From assembly GCA_036231405.1 (NCBI GenBank), contig JAZAHK010000028.1, positions 575-64,574 on the forward strand: a stretch of 64,000 nucleotides of DNA. Reading direction: 5' to 3'. The position numbers and the translations under genes are program-made. Of the stretch, positions 37,644 to 47,528 are shown piece by piece. Position 1 is the stretch's first letter. The number at the start of each line of letters is the position of its first letter. Source of the stretch: Nitrospinota bacterium (GTDB taxonomy: Bacteria > UBA8248). The notes beneath the pieces were generated by a model. It searched no databases. It had not been told where the DNA came from and saw only the letters and a list, made by a program, of their open reading frames with translations.

Positions 37644-38439
37644 AATGAATAAAAAAAATAAAGAACTTACTACAGCAGATATTCTTAGGAATAAATTCTA
37701 TTCTGAATCTTCAGTTTTTCAACCTGCAAATCTTTTGAGGGAGTCTAGAAGACAGAATCGAATACCTCTTGGAGATGTCCCTCCTGTTTGTATTCTGGAT
37801 CCTGATGGTAATTTGGTGGACTATCTGAAGAATAAAAATCAGACCGTAAAAAATAAATATTGGGCTTGTTACCACTCAAACTTGTACACATTTGAAGTTA
37901 ATGGATTAACAGTAGGTATAATTCCGCGCGCCGTAGGATCTTCATACGCTGTATTAATAGCTGAACAGCTGTTTGTATCAGGCTGTGAACTTTTAATTAG
38001 TATCACTTCTGCCGGTGTCATCAAGGAATTAAATTTTGACAAACAATTTGCATTGATTACTCAAGCAATCAGAGATGAAGGAACGAGTTATCACTATTTA
38101 CCAAAAAATGAACCGTCAGTGCTTTGCCAAAAGTTACTCAGTAAATTAAGAAAAAATGGGAGTCTCTGGGTAGAAGTAAATAGCTGGACGACGGATGCTC
38201 CTTACAGAGAAACACAATTCGCAATAAATGCAATGAAGAAAGAAAATGTAACCTGTGTAGAAATGGAGGCTTCTGCATTGTATGCATTCGCAAAAGCAAA
38301 AGATAAAAAAGTCATTTGTTTTGCGCACCTAACAAACACAATGGCACAAGAAGAAGGTGATTTTGAGAAGGGAGATGATTTCGGGAGCTTGGAAATGATC
38401 AAGTTAATTGAAGAGATTCTTGAAAAATTGGGACAGTGA
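37644..38439 (+). CDS. nucleoside phosphorylase (PNP/UDP/MTA phosphorylase superfamily)
   Basis: VGIIPRAVGSSYAVLIAEQL and VEMEASALYAFAKA motifs. Start reassigned to the ATG at 37644 (MNKKNKELTT). The track ORF at 37378 overlaps the upstream gene in another frame. Low GC. Confidence 0.7.
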
Positions 38440-38442
38440 AAG

Positions 38443-38600
38443 ATGCAGATTTGTAAATTCGCCATAGATCTTACTTTGACAATATTTGTTGCAAGTTGTT
38501 CTTATCCAGCGAGAATACTAGGCAAACTTTGACATCATACTTCCAAAGGATTTCATAACCCAAAAGGTAGCCTAAAGAAAAATTTCTGGTTCAGGTGTGT
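38443..38600 (+). pseudogene. 5' fragment of an MBL-fold lipoprotein gene (decayed paralog of the 41697..42752 gene), interrupted by TGA where the intact copy has TGG
   Basis: About 75% nucleotide identity over about 155 bp to 41697..41855. Compare atgcagatttgtaaattc...gcaagttgttct...cacttccaaaggatttc with atgcagaattgtaaattc...gcaagttgctct...cacttccaaaggatttc. The frame reads MQICKFAIDLTLTIFVASCSYPARILGKL*. Confidence 0.7.
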
Positions 38601-38765
38601 TCCTTAGTTTTTAAGCAGACCTTTAAAATTAATTTTTTTCAATGCCTAGAAAGTGCCGTCTAATCATGTAACGCCAAAGACAGATGCATGAGTGTGGAAC
38701 GCCATAGTTGTTATTTGAAATTGTTTCTAGTAGTCTACCGGCACACAATCAAATGAGGAGAAAAA

Positions 38766-39761
38766 ATGAAAAGATTTATGTATTCCCTATTGGCAATAGT
38801 TTTTCTATTTTTTGCGACGTCTAATGTAGATGCTAGGAAATTGAAAGATATTAAGATAACGCAGGCAGTGGCCTCCTTTGCGTTTCTGCCTATTAGTTAT
38901 GCCAAGGCTGCAGGTTTCTATGCAGCTGAGGGACTAAACGTTACGCAGATAAAGACTCGTGGTGGTGGACCAGATCTCGTTGCTTTGATGTCTGGAAATG
39001 TACAATTCAACGCTAATGCAGGGACCTACCAAATAGGGGCTCTTAAGAAGAAACGTAAATTATTAAATGTCTATAATTTCTATAAACGGAATCTAATCAG
39101 TGTTGTGATTAGCGCGAAGAAACAGAAGGAGCTTGGTGTTTCACCGTCAGCGCCTTTAGTTAAACGTGCGGCGGTTTTGAAGGGCCTACGTATGGGTATG
39201 ACACGTCCTGGTTCTCTTACTCATAAGCAGTTAAAACATTTAGCACGTGTTGGTGGACTGGGAGAAAAGGATGTTAGGATCATAGCAATTGGTGGACCTC
39301 CTTCTCTTTTGGCAGCACTAAAGAGAGATCAGATCGATGGATTTGCTATATCTCCTCCGGCTGATCGTATTGCAATTTCTCGTGGTTTGGCTGTTATGTG
39401 GGTTGATAATGCAGCAGGAGCTGATCCATCCATTGATCCATTTATGATGGAAAGTATTGTGACCACGCAGGAGTATGCTGACGCGAACCCAGATGTAGTT
39501 CGTGCTATGATAAGGGCTACTCGGAAGGCTGTTTCTGAAATCAGTAAGAAGAGTGCCAAAGAGGTTTTTGATGTTATTAAGGGGGAGTTCAAAAAAGTTA
39601 AACCTGACGTTGGAGAACTTGCTATAAAGGCAGTGAAACCTGCACTGAATCTTAAGGGAAACGTCACAAAAAAAATGGCTGAGAACACCATGCGCTTAGA
39701 TGGGCGTAAAGAAGTCAGTGCGGATGAACTCTTCTCCACATATACAGCGAAGTTTCAATAA
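38766..39761 (+). CDS. ABC transporter periplasmic substrate-binding protein (NMT1/SsuA/TauA-like; sulfonate/nitrate/bicarbonate family)
   Basis: Signal peptide MKRFMYSLLAIVFLFFATSNVDA. NMT1-like core. GC about 47-50%. Confidence 0.75.
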   Translation: MKRFMYSLLAIVFLFFATSNVDARKLKDIKITQAVASFAFLPISYAKAAGFYAAEGLNVTQIKTRGGGPDLVALMSGNVQFNANAGTYQIGALKKKRKLLNVYNFYKRNLISVVISAKKQKELGVSPSAPLVKRAAVLKGLRMGMTRPGSLTHKQLKHLARVGGLGEKDVRIIAIGGPPSLLAALKRDQIDGFAISPPADRIAISRGLAVMWVDNAAGADPSIDPFMMESIVTTQEYADANPDVVRAMIRATRKAVSEISKKSAKEVFDVIKGEFKKVKPDVGELAIKAVKPALNLKGNVTKKMAENTMRLDGRKEVSADELFSTYTAKFQ

Positions 39762-39793
39762 TCACCGATTCTTTTGTTTGAAAGTTATTTTGT

Positions 39794-40588
39794 ATGAGTA
39801 AAAACGATCCAGCAATATCCCTGCAGGGAGTGTCTCGTATCTTTCACGCACAGCGTGGTGATGTGGTGGCTCTTGCGGATGTTGAACTTGACATTCAGGA
39901 TGGTGAGTTTATCACTATGGTAGGCCCGTCTGGTTGTGGCAAGTCAACAGCTCTCAATCTTGTAGCGGGTCTTTTGGAACCGTCTGGCGGCAATGTTTTA
40001 TTCAGAGGTTCCCCAACTAGTGGCATTAATCGAGAAATTGGCTACGTTACACAGTCTGATAACCTGTTCCCATGGCGAACAGTGATTGAAAATGTGATGT
40101 TTGGTATGGAAATGCGTGGTATTGGCACCAAGGAGGAGCGTCGAGATAAGGCTTTGGCGCTCCTTGATAGAGTCAACCTGACGGGTTTTCAAGATCACTA
40201 TAGACATGAGTTGTCTGGTGGTATGCGCCAAAGGGTAAATATTGTTCGCACTCTTGCTTATGATCCTAAAGTTCTTTTGTTGGATGAGCCGTTCGGGCCA
40301 CTTGATGCGCAAACTCGATTACAATTACAAGATTTGTTACTTAAACTCTGGCATGAAAGAGAAGGGATTACCGTAATTTTTATAACACATGAATTGAATG
40401 AAGCCATAGCTTTGGCTGATAGGGTGGTTGTAATGTCTGCGCGTCCTGGCCGAGTTCGTGAAGTGGTACCTGTAGATATCCCACGCCCGCGTGATATTTA
40501 TAGTATTCATTCTGATCCAAGTTTCCGTGATATATATGATCAAATTTGGAAGCATCTTGGAGAGGAAATGAAAGAGAGTTCACTGTGA
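39794..40588 (+). CDS. ABC transporter ATP-binding protein (SsuB/TauB/NrtD-like)
   Basis: Walker A GPSGCGKST, ABC signature LSGGMRQRV, Walker B LLLDEPF. Confidence 0.9.
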   Translation: MSKNDPAISLQGVSRIFHAQRGDVVALADVELDIQDGEFITMVGPSGCGKSTALNLVAGLLEPSGGNVLFRGSPTSGINREIGYVTQSDNLFPWRTVIENVMFGMEMRGIGTKEERRDKALALLDRVNLTGFQDHYRHELSGGMRQRVNIVRTLAYDPKVLLLDEPFGPLDAQTRLQLQDLLLKLWHEREGITVIFITHELNEAIALADRVVVMSARPGRVREVVPVDIPRPRDIYSIHSDPSFRDIYDQIWKHLGEEMKESSL

Positions 40589-41346
40589 ATGTGTTCCAAC
40601 TAACTGGTTGGCGAATTCTGGTTGCATTTGTTCTCCTTGCTTCGTGGCAACTGTTTGGCGGTGATTTGTTGTCAAATCCATACGAAATTGCTGAGTATTT
40701 ATGGGAATATATTGTGACCGGAGGCGATTTCTGGCTTGATATTACCTCTACTTTTAAAGCTACAGTGATCGGTTATTTTATAGGTGCAATTGCAGGTTTG
40801 CTCTTTGGACTTTTGCTGTCGCAGAGCGAGAAAGCCTCACTAATTTTCAAACCATATGTTCTTGCAGTCTATGGAATCCCACGAATTGCGCTGGCCCCAG
40901 TTTTCATTGCTTGGTTTGGTATTGCACTCCTATCAAAAGTAATGATGGCGGGGATGGTTACTTTCATGTTGGTGTTTTTTAATACCTATGAAGGAATTCG
41001 TTCGGTTGATTTAGATCTGCACAATACTGCCCGTGTCCTTGGTGCCGATCGCTGGCAACTGTTTTTTTACGTAACATTACCTAACGCAAGTCCATGGATA
41101 ACAGCAGGTCTCAGGATCGCGATCCCTCAAGCGTTGGTGGGCGCAGTAGTTGCGGAATTTATTGCTTCGGAGCACGGTCTGGGTTTTCGTATGATGGAAA
41201 ATACCGGACAGCTTGCAATGGAAGGAGTTATGGCCGGTGTTCTTATCTTAATGTTGATTGTTGTTCTTCTAAATTCTATTCTTGATAGAGTGGAGGATTA
41301 TATCTTGCGCTGGCGCCCAAAGATAACCGATACAGAGATCGTGTAA
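40546..41346 (+). CDS. ABC transporter permease (SsuC/TauC-like, BPD_transp_1)
   Basis: Six hydrophobic segments with an EAA-like loop. The true start may be the in-frame GTG at 40585, which overlaps the ATPase stop as GTGA. Confidence 0.8.
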   Translation: MEASWRGNEREFTVNVFQLTGWRILVAFVLLASWQLFGGDLLSNPYEIAEYLWEYIVTGGDFWLDITSTFKATVIGYFIGAIAGLLFGLLLSQSEKASLIFKPYVLAVYGIPRIALAPVFIAWFGIALLSKVMMAGMVTFMLVFFNTYEGIRSVDLDLHNTARVLGADRWQLFFYVTLPNASPWITAGLRIAIPQALVGAVVAEFIASEHGLGFRMMENTGQLAMEGVMAGVLILMLIVVLLNSILDRVEDYILRWRPKITDTEIV

Positions 41347-41696
41347 AGGTTATGTTGAAAGTTAAAATAGAAAGCGTGAGGCAGAGTTTAAATTTATTGA
41401 AAGAAAAATTTGAAAATGAAAACGATTGATTGCCCTCTTGTGATTTTCGCTTCAAACATGCAAATCCTGATTGTTGTACTGCTTGTAATCAACCTCATTA
41501 TAGAAACTGCTTGAAAGCTTTTCGAGACAAAATGGAAGAGAGTCCAGAAGCACGTTTTATAGCTTTGTGTCCATCGTGTATAGATTCTATTTCGTGGCGA
41601 ATAGATGCTCAAGAGGTCGTATCTTCAAGTTGGAATGAGTGGGAGTTAGAAACATAGGAGTAATGAGAGAAGTGACGGAGAGGGCTTTAATCTAAA

Positions 41697-42752
41697 ATGC
41701 AGAATTGTAAATTCTTTATATTTTTTTTGTTGTCAATATTTATAGCAAGTTGCTCTGATGCAGCGAAAATTCCTGATAAGCCTTGGCATCACACTTCCAA
41801 AGGATTTCGCAATCCCGAAGGTAGTCCTAAAAAAAAATCCTGGATTAATCGTTTTCCTTGGATTGTGAGTAGACCCTTTAAATTGATGTTTTTTGGCATT
41901 CCAAAACTACCTCCTGAACATGTAATGAAAAAGAAAGAAGTAGTGCATGGATTAAAGGCAACTGCAGGAAAAGATACAGTAACTTGGTTGGGCCATATGA
42001 CGGCCTTACTTCGTATTGACGGCAAGTCTATTTTAACTGATCCCTGGCTTACCAGTCATGCTTCTCCGGTTCGTCCGCTCGGTCCAAAACGTTATGTCAA
42101 ACCAGCTTTGACAACTTCAGAACTCCCTCCAATAAATTTTATTGTTATTTCCCACAGTCATTTTGATCATCTTGATCTTCCCACAATCGAGGCGATTCCG
42201 AACCGAGAAAAAATCACTGCAATCGTGCCTCTCGGAATTGGCAAATATTTCAAAGAATATGGATATAAAAAAATTATTGAATTGGATTGGGAGAAATCTG
42301 TTACTGAAGACGGAATAAGTTTCACTGCGCTTCCAGTTATACACTGGTCTAAAAGATCGGTTTTTTCTACAAATGATACACTTTGGACCGGTTGGGCGAT
42401 AAAGGGTGCTGGTGGGACTCGTGTTTTTTTTGCTGGAGATGCAGAATACAGTTCCGTTTACCAAGATATTGCTAAAAGACATGGTGGTTTTGATCTTTCT
42501 TTGCTTTCTATAGGTGCTTTTTTACCAAGGGTCGTGATGCACGGTTCACATTGTGTCCCGGAAGATTGTATTAAAATAGGAAATGATATGGGAGCAAAAA
42601 ATCATCTTGGAATGCACTGGGGTACTGCTCCACTTGGAGATGATACCCCGTTAGAGGCTCTTCGACGTTTTCGAAATGGGGCTAAGACATTAGGGATACC
42701 TGCAGGACGGGTATGGATTATGAAAATCGGTGAGACGCGTATTATTGAATGA
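41697..42752 (+). CDS. MBL-fold metallo-hydrolase lipoprotein
   Basis: Lipobox LSIFIASC. VISHSHFDHLD metallo-beta-lactamase motif. Confidence 0.8.
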   Translation: MQNCKFFIFFLLSIFIASCSDAAKIPDKPWHHTSKGFRNPEGSPKKKSWINRFPWIVSRPFKLMFFGIPKLPPEHVMKKKEVVHGLKATAGKDTVTWLGHMTALLRIDGKSILTDPWLTSHASPVRPLGPKRYVKPALTTSELPPINFIVISHSHFDHLDLPTIEAIPNREKITAIVPLGIGKYFKEYGYKKIIELDWEKSVTEDGISFTALPVIHWSKRSVFSTNDTLWTGWAIKGAGGTRVFFAGDAEYSSVYQDIAKRHGGFDLSLLSIGAFLPRVVMHGSHCVPEDCIKIGNDMGAKNHLGMHWGTAPLGDDTPLEALRRFRNGAKTLGIPAGRVWIMKIGETRIIE

Positions 42753-42806
42753 GTTATACTCAAACGATCGTGTGAAAGCTAGAGTTTAATGTATAGGAGG
42801 TTGTGT

Positions 42807-43673
42807 ATGTCCGAATATGATTTGAAAGGAAGAACGATAATTGTGACTGGTGCAGGTCGTGGTCTTGGTCGAGCTATGACCGAGGCACTTACAGAAGCAG
42901 GTGCGAATGTAGTTGCAGCAGCTCATATAACAGAAGATTTTCCAGAACTTCAAGAAGCATGTTCGAGTCATCCTGGTGACCTATATTGTATAATGGGAGA
43001 TATTCGAAAATCAGACGATTGCGACAGAATTATTTCCGCGACTTTAGAGGTATTTGGTGATGTCCATGGCCTTGTTAATAATGCAGGACTAACTTTTACC
43101 TATATTACTCCGGATGCGTACAGACGAGATGCTTTTAAACAGAGAAAAGAATATCCAAAATTTTATGAAGCAAGTGATGAGGTTATACAAAACGTGATCG
43201 ATACTAATTTCGTAGGTGCAGATAAGCTATGCCGACGAGTAGTTCCTCTAATGATTGATCAGGGTTGGGGTCGTATCGTCAACGTCACAACCATGTATCG
43301 AACAATGACACGTCAGGGAGCGTCGCCATACGGTCCTTCCAAGGCCGCACTTGAATGTGCAACTGAAATTTGGGCAAAAGATTTAGCAGAGACCGGAGTA
43401 ACTGTAAATGTTTTAAATCCTGGTTCTGGTGCCGCTACTCCAGGAATGGCAGAGGAAATGAAGGAATATAGTAAGAGTTTAGAGAATCCTATCCTTATCG
43501 AGGCTGAATTAATGAAAGCTCCGATTGTCTGGCTTATTTCGGACGCAACCAATGAAATTACAGGAATGCGTTATGATGCAAAGCCTTGGGACCCAAATAA
43601 ATCTGCAGCCGAAGAAGCAGAACGAATTGGGGCTAAGGCAGGCGTTCTCCTCTACTCCATGCCAGACTACTAA
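42807..43673 (+). CDS. SDR-family oxidoreductase
   Basis: TGAGRGLGRAM glycine-rich NAD(P) motif. Start set at the ATG at 42807 behind a TAGGAGG RBS. The track ORF starts at 42789. Confidence 0.85.
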   Translation: MSEYDLKGRTIIVTGAGRGLGRAMTEALTEAGANVVAAAHITEDFPELQEACSSHPGDLYCIMGDIRKSDDCDRIISATLEVFGDVHGLVNNAGLTFTYITPDAYRRDAFKQRKEYPKFYEASDEVIQNVIDTNFVGADKLCRRVVPLMIDQGWGRIVNVTTMYRTMTRQGASPYGPSKAALECATEIWAKDLAETGVTVNVLNPGSGAATPGMAEEMKEYSKSLENPILIEAELMKAPIVWLISDATNEITGMRYDAKPWDPNKSAAEEAERIGAKAGVLLYSMPDY

Positions 43674-43684
43674 GTGGGTTATCT
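43466..43684. repeat. 219-bp direct repeat, copy 1 (native 3' end of the SDR gene)
   Basis: About 93% identical to 44982..45200. Runs from atatagtaagagtttagagaatcctatc through ctaagtgggttatct. Confidence 0.9.
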
Positions 43685-43783
43685 TCATTTCTTACCCACT
43701 TTATGTTACGATCACTGAATGAGCCGACTGCTGCCGTTATTTTGGTACGCATGTGTCGCTGCATTTATGCTAAAGGTATTTTT

Positions 43784-44959
43784 ATGTTTACAGCAACTAA
43801 AGATCGATCACTGCTTACTACCACTACGGGTGCCTTGCCACGTCCTACCTGGTATACTGAAAACCTTCGGGGGCAGCCATTATCCATAGGATTTTCACAG
43901 AAAGGTTATCGCGAACAACATTTTGATTGTCTCTCTTGTCATATTAGTGCGCAGAAGAGAGCAGGGATTGATATCTTTGTTGATGGTGATACAAGGCTCG
44001 ATGATGACGTCGCTGGTCGGAGCTGGGTGAGTTATGCCTATGAGCGGATAAAAGGTTTTGGTGTACCGGATATTTCTGTACAGCCCTATGCTGCAATGGC
44101 TGACAGTGGTCCTGGTGACTTCATATGGGAAGTTATAGAGACACGACTAACTCCTCATGTAGAGGATAAGATTGGTGAGACTTCGCTCCAACTCGATCGG
44201 GCATGGAAGGCGATTGCACCCATGACCAGTCGGCCCGTTAAGATTGGCTCAATCTCCGCCCAGGTTATTGCCCATATGTGCGTTAACGATCACTACACTA
44301 GCCGCTTTGACCTGCTAATGGCTTTATCGGAGGCATTGAATCATGAGTATCACGCTCTCGCCGATGCTGGAGCGCCAATTGTTCAAATAGAAGAACCCGC
44401 AATTCATCAATCGATGTACGCTCTCAACCCTGAAATTACTGCTGAACAGTATGTAGAAGCTTTTAACGTGGAAGTTGCTGGTTTGCGCGAAAAATGTGAA
44501 GTCTGGTGCCATGCTTGTTGGGGTAGCCCTGGTGCACAAAAAATGTTTCCTTCGGGAGCTTCCTACAAGGAGGCTCTACCATATTTTGATAAGCTCGACA
44601 TCGATGTCTTGACAGTCGAAGGTGCTACAAACGGCGGTATTGATGTCCCTCTATACGGTTCTATGATCTCCAAGGACAAAAAGATAGCGGTTGGAGTTAT
44701 CAGTCACCGCACAATGCAGATAGAAAGACCTGAAGAGGTTGCCAGTTTAATTCGTCTATGTCTCCAACATATTGAACCTGAGCGCTTGGTCCTCTCGAGT
44801 GATTGTGGATTTGGTCGTCAGTCAATGAGCCGTATGCATGCCTTCTATAAAATGGTGTCCCTGGTCCGGGGTGCAAATATTGTGCGTCGTGAGCTCGGAC
44901 TTGAGGAAGTTGCCGTTCCGGCAGCAGATCCCAACTTTTCTATGGTACCCATTCGTTAG
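43784..44959 (+). CDS. cobalamin-independent methionine synthase (MetE) C-terminal-domain-like / UroD-fold methyltransferase family protein
   Basis: Zn-ligand-like motifs VWCHACWG and LSSDCGFG as in Meth_synt_2. GC about 50%. Start set at the ATG at 43784. The track ORF starts at 43703. Confidence 0.65.
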   Translation: MFTATKDRSLLTTTTGALPRPTWYTENLRGQPLSIGFSQKGYREQHFDCLSCHISAQKRAGIDIFVDGDTRLDDDVAGRSWVSYAYERIKGFGVPDISVQPYAAMADSGPGDFIWEVIETRLTPHVEDKIGETSLQLDRAWKAIAPMTSRPVKIGSISAQVIAHMCVNDHYTSRFDLLMALSEALNHEYHALADAGAPIVQIEEPAIHQSMYALNPEITAEQYVEAFNVEVAGLREKCEVWCHACWGSPGAQKMFPSGASYKEALPYFDKLDIDVLTVEGATNGGIDVPLYGSMISKDKKIAVGVISHRTMQIERPEEVASLIRLCLQHIEPERLVLSSDCGFGRQSMSRMHAFYKMVSLVRGANIVRRELGLEEVAVPAADPNFSMVPIR

Positions 44960-44981
44960 TAATTGGTGTAAGAAAAAAATA

Positions 44982-45189
44982 ATATAGTAAGAGTTTAGAG
45001 AATCCTATCTTTCCCGAGCCAGAACTAATGAAGGCCCCAATTGTCTGGCTGATTTCCGATGCAACCAATGAAATTACAGGAATGCGTTATGATGCAAAGC
45101 CTTGGGACCCAAATAAACCTGCAGCCGAAGAAGCAGAACGAATTGGGGCTAAGGCAGGCGTTCTGCTCTACTCCATGCCAGACTACTAA
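44982..45189 (+). pseudogene. orphan 3' fragment of SDR gene (duplicate copy; last ~68 codons, ...KSLENPIFPEPELMKAPIVWLISDATNEITGMRYDAKPWDPNKPAAEEAERIGAKAGVLLYSMPDY*)
   Basis: Direct-repeat copy 2 (44982..45200) of the SDR 3' end. It has no 5' part or start codon. Confidence 0.85.
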
Positions 45190-45241
45190 GTGGGTTATCT
45201 GAAACATAGCTAACTACAAAATATGGTTGAATGATATGAAT

Positions 45242-46432
45242 TTACGGCAATCCACTTTGCTTAGAAAAAGTTTGCGTTAGTTCTAAAATATTTTCATCCA
45301 TTCCAGTGGATCCTAGAAATGATACTCCTACAGGGCAATCTTTAACTGTCAAAGCTGGCATAGATACTTGTGGAAATCCACCGAGACCAGCGATGCATGT
45401 TAATGCCATGGTTTTGGCTCTGAAGAGTTCAAGAGTTTTGCTGTCAGCTTGTTTTAGAGGAGCGATACAGGGTGCGGTTGGAAAAACAAGCACTGTTCCA
45501 GGTGGAATAATTTTGTCAATATGCTCCTTGATTTCGTTCCTTTTCTTCAGTGCTTCGTTAAATTCTGAATCAGTAATTGCTTCTGCAGTTTGAAATCGTT
45601 TATCTATACCCGGACCAAGGGAAGGATTATGTTCTCTGACCCATGGTAGATTGGTTATTTTAACTTCACCTGCTTGTATTATTCTGAACGTTTCCCACCA
45701 CTTATCGAGTCCTTCAGAAGAGACGGTAATTTGCTGGATATCTTTACCTAAAATCTCTTCAGTGAAATTTGTAAAAGCCAATTGGATTCCTGGGTCAGAG
45801 TTGTCGACGGCATCTTTGGCGACGATAATCCTGTTTATTGGTGTGTTTTCGCGTTTTCCTTTTAGTAATGAATGCCCAATTATAGGCATAAGGTTTGTTT
45901 TTGAGGAAAACCAACCTACTGTATCAAAGCTTGGTGCCATGGCACGTGCGCCATCAAGGCTTACACGTCCTATAGTAGGCCGAATCCCCCAAATTCCACA
46001 AAACGATGAAGGAATACGAACGGATCCCCCTGTGTCCGATCCTATTGAAAAATCTACAATCCCTGCTGCAACAGCTGCCGCTGAACCAGAAGATGAGCCA
46101 CCAGGTAATCGTTCGGGAGCTTTGCAATTAATCGGGGTGCCGTAATGTTTATTCGCACCTGTTAAGCTATAAAAAAACTCGTCGCAAATGTTCATTCCTA
46201 CTAAGGTTGCCCCGGAGTTTAATAGTTGAGTGATCGCTTTTGCGTTAACAGTAGAAGCCAGAGCGTGTTTATGAAATTCAGGGCTGCCATTTGAAGTTTT
46301 ATGTCCAATTACGTCGAATAGATCTTTCGCCATAAAATTAAGCCCAGCAAGGGGGCCAGTTTTTGAACCGGAAATAGGTTCTTTAAGGTTGTCTGGTACA
46401 AGACAGTTAACTGGATCTTCTAGAGGGAACAT
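45242..46432 (-). CDS. amidase-signature family amidase
   Basis: GGSSSGSAAAVAAGIVDFSIGSDTGGSVRIPSSFCGIWGIRPT, the AS signature with the Ser-cisSer-Lys triad. Confidence 0.85.
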   Translation of the reverse strand: MFPLEDPVNCLVPDNLKEPISGSKTGPLAGLNFMAKDLFDVIGHKTSNGSPEFHKHALASTVNAKAITQLLNSGATLVGMNICDEFFYSLTGANKHYGTPINCKAPERLPGGSSSGSAAAVAAGIVDFSIGSDTGGSVRIPSSFCGIWGIRPTIGRVSLDGARAMAPSFDTVGWFSSKTNLMPIIGHSLLKGKRENTPINRIIVAKDAVDNSDPGIQLAFTNFTEEILGKDIQQITVSSEGLDKWWETFRIIQAGEVKITNLPWVREHNPSLGPGIDKRFQTAEAITDSEFNEALKKRNEIKEHIDKIIPPGTVLVFPTAPCIAPLKQADSKTLELFRAKTMALTCIAGLGGFPQVSMPALTVKDCPVGVSFLGSTGMDENILELTQTFSKQSGLP

Positions 46433-47322
46433 TAAATTTTTGGTACCGGAATTTGGCCTGAAAACCAGTCAAGAATTTCTACGCCATCCCAGCATACTAC
46501 CCCAGGCTTAGAGAGGATTTTTTCAAAGGCCTCCCTAACATAAGGAATCCTATGTGGAGACCCAGAAAGGTATGTATGCATTGCTAAAGCCATAACTCTA
46601 GGTTGTCCATCTTCAGTTTCAGCATATATTGTGTCAAAATAGTCCAAGGCCCTATCTCGGTAGATGTGAGAGACGTTGTTTTGTATGTTCATCATTACAA
46701 TGTCATGAAGTTCATAATTATATGGAAGAGCTGCGACTGGTTTATGTTTAGTTCGTGCCCAGATGGGTTGGTCGTCTAAGACCCAGTCCCCTATATATTC
46801 GATCCCAGCTTCTGAAAGATGGTCTAAGGTGTCAAATGTTTGTGTTAGCCCAGGACCAAACCAACCCCGAGGCTGTGTGCCGGTAAAGTTTTTGATAACA
46901 TGCAATGAATGATCAATTACACTTCGTTCGTCTTCGAGTTTGTGCATTGGTAACTGCTCGTACGAATGTGCATTGAATTCCCATCCAGATTCAAGGCATG
47001 CCCCGGCAACTGCAGGATATTCTTCGCAAACTCGTGCATTTAGGGTTACCGTAGGTCTAATTCCCAAGTCATCCATCATTCTCTTTAAGCGCCAGAACCC
47101 CACGCGCATGCCGTATTCGTGCCAGGACCAATTTGGATGGTCAGGTGTCATTGGCAGACCTTGTGGTGGAGAAATTACCATTCGTGCCATAGCACGATCA
47201 ATATTCCAGACTTCAAGAGCAAGTATTGGCCAAATAATTACACGTCCATTGTCTGGCAAAGATAGTTGCTGCCTGCTCTCTATTGTTGAATAATCGATCC
47301 TTTCACTTGGCTTCATTTCCAC
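46432..47322 (-). CDS. polysaccharide deacetylase family protein (PuuE/allantoinase-like)
   Basis: 296-aa ORF. Its start overlaps the amidase stop by 1 nt. Deacetylase-like NodB pattern (TLDHLSEAGIEYIGDW...). Confidence 0.6.
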   Translation of the reverse strand: MEMKPSERIDYSTIESRQQLSLPDNGRVIIWPILALEVWNIDRAMARMVISPPQGLPMTPDHPNWSWHEYGMRVGFWRLKRMMDDLGIRPTVTLNARVCEEYPAVAGACLESGWEFNAHSYEQLPMHKLEDERSVIDHSLHVIKNFTGTQPRGWFGPGLTQTFDTLDHLSEAGIEYIGDWVLDDQPIWARTKHKPVAALPYNYELHDIVMMNIQNNVSHIYRDRALDYFDTIYAETEDGQPRVMALAMHTYLSGSPHRIPYVREAFEKILSKPGVVCWDGVEILDWFSGQIPVPKI

Positions 47323-47528
47323 AGGCTCCTTTATCCGATTTGAAATTCAAAGGGGTGTTCATGGCCCACATTTTGTATCTAGCGTCTATGAATTCGGTAT
47401 ACATGATGCAAGGCAAATTTACAATCACTTATAGTTTTTTTTGATGTGGTGATGTACATGTTATGGCAATAGTTGCTGTAATTCATTGAATAGGATGAAT
47501 AGTAAATTAAATGGGATAATTTTTTTAT

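Follow-up and report, generated by a model that had tools for sequence, protein, structure and literature searches.

How did a gene of the MetE C-terminal-domain family come to stand between an intact SDR-family oxidoreductase gene and a second, headless copy of that gene's 3' end? The arrangement lies in a 64,000-nt stretch of DNA (the window; contig JAZAHK010000028.1, positions 575 to 64,574) from a metagenome-assembled genome (MAG) of a marine Nitrospinota bacterium. A repeat search returned one single strong direct repeat there, 43465-43684 against 44981-45200, with 206 of 220 nt identical (94%) and a spacing of 1,516 nt. An initial annotation of this DNA, made from its letters alone, had seen the same repeat at about 93% identity with each copy starting one base later, at 43466 and 44982, and had read it as the footprint of a Campbell-type integration. 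We find that DNA was gained here at an empty site, with a 220-nt duplication of the target, one microhomology joint, a filler at the other joint and no recombinase found. A recombinase-independent, microhomology-mediated insertion-duplication, completed in one step, may account for this footprint.

Copy 1 of the repeat is the end of the complete SDR gene. Copy 2 had been described as an orphan in-frame SDR C-terminus, and so it proved: its reading frame (44983-45189, ...YSKSLENPIFPEPELMKAP...SMPDY and stop) has no 5' part and is preceded directly by an in-frame TAA (44980-44982). Copy 2 gives no Pfam match by itself. An open reading frame (ORF) within the remnant, 45028-45189, is named a 53-aa hypothetical protein in NCBI (MED5579628.1), and JGI and ENA assemblies contain the same gene call. 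This "hypothetical protein" is a mis-annotated pseudogene fragment, a scar rather than a gene. The products of the SDR gene, the MetE gene, the remnant ORF and the neighbouring amidase gene are identical to MED5579626-29 of the NCBI 'Nitrospinota bacterium' MAG, on a contig of 139,163 bp (locus tags VX794_063xx), the SDR product being MED5579626.1.

Relatives had been predicted to carry an empty site, and two of them do. In L049 (GCA_029935935.1, 2.8 kb, about 90-92% nucleotide identity) the order is PNP-SDR-amidase(reverse), and a single SDR 3' end with the trailer GCGGGTTATCT is followed directly by the sequence that is found after copy 2 in the window. In L042 (19.6 kb) the order is MBL-329aa-PrpD-SDR-amidase-deacetylase-MOSC-RumA, and the trailer reads GCGGATTACCT. 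The ancestral order, ...SDR-stop-GTGGGTTATCT-spacer-amidase(reverse)-deacetylase(reverse)-MOSC..., is still present in these relatives. Because the empty sites exist, copy 2 can be seen to occupy the place that the SDR 3' end held ancestrally, and the 1,516-nt unit was gained. A scan of metagenome DNA with a conserved 29-mer of the repeat recovered only distant contigs of the L001/L025 type.

The junctions are reproduced in nine independent metagenome contigs, which come from various samples and assemblers. Four of them, from other samples (L038-L041), hold the left junction, in which copy 1, the filler and MetE follow one another, and are colinear with the window without a gap from 42789 to as far as 44874. 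Five others (L035 and L045-L048) hold the right junction, in which MetE is followed by copy 2 and the amidase flank. A private MetE haplotype of five single-nucleotide polymorphisms (SNPs), common to L045 and L038-L040, ties both sides to one lineage. An apparent 22-nt deletion in copy 2 of L045, considered as pseudogene decay, was rejected: it is a scaffold gap, a run of N (L045:1559-1573), and no biological deletion. The repeat evidently disrupts short-read assembly.

The cargo has a second home. In contigs L050-L053 homology to the window is confined to 43731-44997, at 96.8% identity; there a non-coding 342-nt sequence (U, L050:1-342) precedes MetE, and the downstream sequence (D, genes at L050:1689-2966) holds a glyoxalase-like gene and a Haem_oxygenas_2 gene. 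Since a 97%-identical copy occupies this other locus in related marine contigs, the cargo is not freshly foreign. No relatives of the cassette were found in viral contigs, and plasmid matches were all below 30% identity.

A three-way comparison resolves the downstream joint. In L050 the sequence AAAAAAATAATATA runs on into CTAATAGCTTAACAG, in the window the same AAAAAAATAATATA is followed by GTAAGAGTTTAGAG, and in the SDR gene GAAGGAATATA is followed by GTAAGAGTTTAGAG. Immediately around the joint L050 reads TAATATA and then CTAATAGCTTAAC, against TAATATA and then GTAAGAGTTTAGAG in the window, as in the SDR gene. Because the joint between the cassette and the SDR remnant falls inside AATATA, which is common to the cassette tail and the SDR gene, it is a microhomology joint. 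The hexamer sits within an imperfect similarity (14 of 17 nt) that continues to 44997, and SDR homology at the second locus (L050-L053) is limited to this 17-nt match. At the other joint, the 46-nt filler matched nothing in the empty sites L049 and L042, in U, at the second MetE locus, in the rest of the window or in any locus fetched. A 20-nt similarity between 43712-43731 and 44818-44837 was rejected as its source, being at chance level. Read directly from the sequence, ACCCAC in the filler (43695-43700) is able to pair with GTGGGT of the trailer in a weak hairpin.

Machinery was sought at the locus as well. As the initial annotation had stated, no integrase or transposase domain occurs among the ORFs scanned (29.8-54.8 kb). 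The repeat search found no terminal inverted repeats at the cassette ends, and there is no tRNA gene. Rfam searches gave no element near the insert and none, riboswitch or other RNA, upstream of MetE at either of its two loci.

The initial annotation had suggested looking for the 7% of positions that differ between the copies in a donor lineage. These differences form a mosaic patch and do not look like donor-lineage divergence. Twelve of the 14 differences in the window fall in 43493-43547 and two in the distal 137 nt, and these two (43602 and 43649) are private to this genome's copy 1. Among close relatives, the comparison of copy 1 (from L038/L041) with copy 2 (from L047/L048) gives 209 matching positions out of 220; the 11 differences all lie within 48 nt, a clustering with a chance of about 1e-6, and elsewhere the copies are identical. 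The patch holds eight synonymous and three non-synonymous changes (pN/pS 0.11-0.15; P = 5e-4). These mostly synonymous changes originated in genes that were functional and are not the product of in-place decay. At individual sites the patch of copy 2 agrees with L049 and L001, and that of copy 1 agrees at several with L042; each of the protein variants, LIEAEL and LIEPEL, is found in intact SDR alleles. A similar tract occurs in MetE, where five SNPs within 43 nt (44305-44347) set the window, L035 and L050 against L038-L040 and L045. Short, dense recombination tracts thus appear to be a feature of this population, and the patch is best read as one of them, because of the MetE tract and because its states are shared piecemeal with different outgroups. 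In copy 2 the changes found in it alone (ATC to CCC) and all three population polymorphisms are non-synonymous, with codon effects read by hand, as expected of a dead remnant that is now decaying.

From these joints and copies we propose the following course. A 1.25-kb cassette with the MetE-family gene would have been copied into the site without a recombinase. The new strand would have left the target directly after the 11-nt trailer, taken up the 46 nt of filler, crossed the cassette from 43731 and re-entered the target at AATATA, 220 nt upstream of its exit. On such a path the SDR gene would stay whole and end in copy 1, and its duplicated, orphan 3' end would remain beside the amidase gene, in the old place, as copy 2. 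The copies would have been identical at first; later a tract of about 50 nt from a divergent SDR allele would have made the patch, and copy 2 would have decayed afterwards. The step we favour is a template switch or end capture guided by microhomology, as in the process called microhomology-mediated break-induced replication (MMBIR). Such a one-step route does without any unseen intermediate. Under the MMBIR model, joints are expected at microhomologies, and templated insertions are expected to come with a flanking duplication (PMC2621351). The locus resembles products of MMBIR, or of fork stalling and template switching (FoSTeS), in its microhomology joint, its filler, an insertion that may be templated from a distant locus and a short flanking duplication where the strand would have rejoined the target upstream of its point of departure (Hastings et al. 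2009, PMC2621351). It differs in that the model was made for human copy-number variation and amplification in E. coli, whereas what we infer here is a fixed 1.3-kb insertion in a wild population.

Several points weigh against this course. The source MAG contig is the only one that spans both copies. The U-MetE-D arrangement is placed only in L050-L053, which may belong to another genome or even another lineage, and 64 kb of the 139-kb contig is visible. With no source match for the filler, microhomology is seen at the second joint alone. Templated insertions of 1.3 kb by template switching are poorly documented in bacteria. Finally, L035 and L046 carry a third MetE haplotype (window-equivalent 43731-45256), which has SNPs of its own and alternates in blocks between alleles like those of the window and alleles like those of L050. 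At the start of L035, 42 nt (L035:1-42) are U-type sequence that matched only L050-L053, neither the window nor other loci; they stand before MetE, and copy 2 stands after it. Either the two MetE loci recombine or a larger original insert was later trimmed, so the history may exceed one step. Because this third haplotype complicates the history, our confidence in the one-step version is only about 0.5.

Table 1. Features of the insertion and its flanks, in window coordinates.
Feature	Position	Strand	Description
SDR-family oxidoreductase gene	42807..43673	+	Intact, 288 aa; PF00106/PF13561; homologues all 288 aa
Repeat copy 1	43465..43684	+	Last 68 SDR codons, stop and 11-nt trailer GTGGGTTATCT
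Divergent patch, copy 1	43497..43544	+	Counterpart 45013-45060 in copy 2; holds all 11 differences seen in relatives, within 48 nt
Filler	43685..43730	+	46 nt between trailer and MetE cassette; unchanged in L038-L041
MetE cassette shared with second context U-MetE-D	43731..44986	+	53 nt upstream, coding sequence and 27-nt tail
MetE-C-terminal-domain family gene	43784..44959	+	Intact, 391 aa; PF01717, 74.6 bits against a gathering score of 21
AATATA microhomology at joint of MetE tail and SDR remnant	44981..44986	+	Same hexamer at 43465-43470 in SDR gene
Repeat copy 2	44981..45200	+	Orphan SDR 3' remnant and trailer; at ancestral position beside amidase gene; pseudogene fragment
Ancestral intergenic spacer	45201..45241	.	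Homologous to post-trailer sequence of empty sites L049 and L042
Amidase gene	45242..46432	-	Convergent with SDR gene; PF01425; NCBIfam PRK08310, 436 bits against a cut-off of 391

The alternative that survives best, although we think it unlikely, is homology-facilitated illegitimate recombination (HFIR). A linear conspecific donor with the order SDR-filler-MetE would have been taken up by a naturally competent, RecA-proficient host and paired by homology with the SDR gene or the DNA upstream of it; its far end would have been joined at AATATA in the recipient's SDR gene, so that copy 1 would be donor DNA and copy 2 the recipient's remnant. The HFIR signature is one junction in extended homology, here the SDR gene continuous into copy 1, with the other at microhomology, here of 6 nt, and foreign DNA gained without mobile-element enzymes; joints of 3-10 bp are described for HFIR in naturally transformable bacteria in the work that a passage of PMC6382021 cites (de Vries & Wackernagel 2002, Prudhomme et al. 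2002, Meier & Wackernagel 2003). Homologous exchange anchored in the SDR gene does occur here. Over 42789-42984 the window and L038-L040 diverge by 13%, and beyond that by 0.7%; this drop about 200 nt into the gene marks a homologous recombination breakpoint in its 5' end, and the upstream cassettes of the window and L038-L041 differ. The copy 2 patch, moreover, resembles the nearest empty-site relative, as expected of a recipient remnant. However, HFIR also needs an SDR-MetE progenitor, and there is none among the contigs with a MetE downstream junction. Described HFIR events delete recipient DNA downstream of the anchor and are not known to duplicate any of the anchor itself; at this locus anchor sequence is duplicated and no recipient DNA deleted, which we count against this route.

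Campbell-type integration, the course first proposed for the locus, seems to us less probable again. A 1,516-bp circle of SDR 3' end, filler and MetE would have entered the SDR 3' end of an empty-site chromosome by one homologous crossover, the AATATA joint being the scar of circle closure. The part of that proposal that holds is an insertion with a duplicated target. The topology is exact, the cargo lying between directly repeated host sequence of which empty-site genomes have one copy, and such an arrangement is potentially reversible. An empty site exists, no site-specific recombinase is required, the 137-nt identical stretch is long enough for RecA, and AATATA could equally have mediated excision of the circle. 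The circular donor and the homologous single crossover are not supported: one repeat edge is a microhomology joint with the cargo's other-locus flank, a 46-nt filler intervenes, and no contig holds an SDR-MetE progenitor lacking copy 2. The route needs such an earlier genome, yet in every contig with the MetE downstream junction, in what is a limited sampling, MetE runs into copy 2 or the D flank. At least three rare events are called for where one suffices. With the copies identical outside the 48-nt patch, no divergence between donor and recipient is visible; the patch itself would fit conspecific alleles or a conversion tract of later date. Had the crossover fallen in the long identical stretch, the native patch would now be in copy 1, yet it is the copy 2 patch that more resembles L049, which is weak evidence against the route. 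The locus, finally, is without replicon, plasmid or phage functions, and the cargo is without plasmid or viral relatives. Campbell integration is therefore less parsimonious than one-step insertion-duplication.

It is highly improbable that the SDR 3' end was tandemly duplicated in place and slowly decayed, with MetE arriving separately, or that the arrangement is ancestral and was lost in relatives. Identity of the copies outside the patch would suit this. However, the differences are mostly synonymous and confined to 48 nt, unlike the neutral decay of a dead copy; MetE and copy 2 are missing in two empty-site and two SDR-MOSC lineages, and precise loss in several lineages is less likely than a single gain. 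Least probable of all is an error of assembly in which the MAG contig was joined chimerically or in duplicate: MetE in two contexts at 97% identity invites chimeric joins, a run of N lies within copy 2 of L045 and no independent contig spans both copies, but it is very unlikely because nine contigs that differ in sample and assembler reproduce the junctions (four the left, five the right) and the MetE haplotype links L038-L040 with L045 across both sides, while the outer flanks, on the SDR side and the amidase side, are neighbours in relatives, a synteny that a chimera of distant loci would not restore.

Three further kinds of known arrangement look similar at first sight. Target direct repeats flank the inserted DNA, as in the target-site duplications of transposons and insertion sequences; unlike those, the duplication is far longer at 220 bp, the repeat is the end of a gene, and no transposase or terminal inverted repeats were found. 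An orphan in-frame 3' fragment downstream of a full-length gene recalls the orphan 3' cassettes of polymorphic toxins (tpsA, cdiA, rhs; PMC3848433). Here, in contrast, the fragment is nearly identical to the resident 3' end and is not an alternative variable domain, the gene encodes an SDR enzyme, and there is no toxin/immunity logic. The locus also resembles the flexible genomic islets of marine bacteria, in that the same anchors (PNP, SDR, MOSC/RumA) bracket different cassettes in different lineages; that label describes a neighbourhood pattern and gives no mechanism for the 220-bp duplication. We conclude that this is a known kind of event, illegitimate or microhomology-mediated gene insertion, in a new instance with unusually complete comparative support, and not a new type of system.

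The cargo gene belongs to the MetE C-terminal-domain family, as had been annotated, and its PF01717 score is well above the gathering threshold. Its higher GC content was also noted correctly, although the value is 47.4% (against 39% for the whole window) and not about 50%; GC at third codon positions is 40%, against 23-37% in neighbouring genes. We take H243, C245 and C341 of the 391-aa protein to be the zinc ligands of the MetE family. These residues align with conserved histidine and cysteine residues of the solved structures 3rpd and 1t7l. All NCBIfam methionine-synthase cut-offs are missed by the protein, the best being PRK04326 at 141.6 bits against a cut-off of 406. It is thus a family member to which these scores assign no substrate. 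MetE is probably co-transcribed with the SDR gene, since the two lie on the same strand 110 nt apart and no promoter-like or terminator-like site is predicted between them.

Most documented bacterial gene gain is tied to the enzymes of mobile elements, and clean footprints of gain without a recombinase are seldom met in nature, above all in marine lineages that have not been cultivated. The locus offers a worked example in which a single metabolic gene was added beside a conserved gene and the SDR gene was left intact, with an empty site, an alternative home of the cargo and a readable joint. If the 137-nt stretch, identical in close relatives and with two private differences here, allowed RecA to loop out the 1,516-nt unit, the empty site would be restored, with the junction SDR(copy 1 patch)-trailer-GAAACATAGC.

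A wider reading, which we regard as very doubtful, is that the SDR gene and its 11-nt trailer form a recurrent recombinase-free docking point, the MetE cassette moving by microhomology alone and remaining excisable through the 220-bp repeats. What follows the SDR stop codon differs between lineages, with no fewer than three neighbours that begin at or close to it: MOSC comes immediately behind the stop, and the amidase spacer and filler-MetE each begin exactly where the trailer ends. On the upstream side, too, cassettes have been exchanged, and the breakpoints fall within the 5' end of the SDR gene. If true, this would be a cassette-exchange system with no dedicated enzyme.

Around the SDR gene the region is plastic: cassettes vary on either side, and the gene itself is the conserved anchor between them. 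The amidase gene is its right-hand neighbour in the empty-site relatives. In two distant Nitrospinaceae MAGs (L001 and L025) MOSC-RumA follows the SDR gene after 30 nt, without amidase and deacetylase, and because of this the amidase-deacetylase pair can be seen as an older variable cassette. The deacetylase, which lies with the PRK08310-type amidase in 45201-47478, gives only a weak match to the allantoinase PuuE. The sequence TAATTCATTG at 47479-47488 is matched in the L001 spacer and may be where the older amidase-deacetylase insertion ends on its right side.

On the other side, between the PNP_UDP_1 gene and the SDR gene (38431-42788), the window carries genes for an NMT1-type substrate-binding protein, an ABC ATPase, a permease and an MBL-fold hydrolase. 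This cassette is missing from L038-L041 and L049, where PNP adjoins SDR. Between MBL and SDR, L042 has an MmgE/PrpD gene and a 329-aa ORF (L042:11311-14869), and L001 has an uncharacterised gap of about 1 kb (L001:2901-3957).

Beyond the clade, about 28 marine alphaproteobacterial MAGs (among loci L002-L030) encode an SDR protein 70-77% identical to this one. These loci, at about 75% amino acid identity, were considered as a source of the arrangement and rejected, having no MetE or amidase neighbours. The nearest MetE-like proteins outside the clade are 80-85% identical and mostly alphaproteobacterial. According to the few matches with a named source, the nearest relatives of MetE (80%) and of the amidase (50-68%) outside the clade are likewise mostly alphaproteobacterial, and the whole gene set may have been exchanged in the past between Nitrospinota and Alphaproteobacteria.

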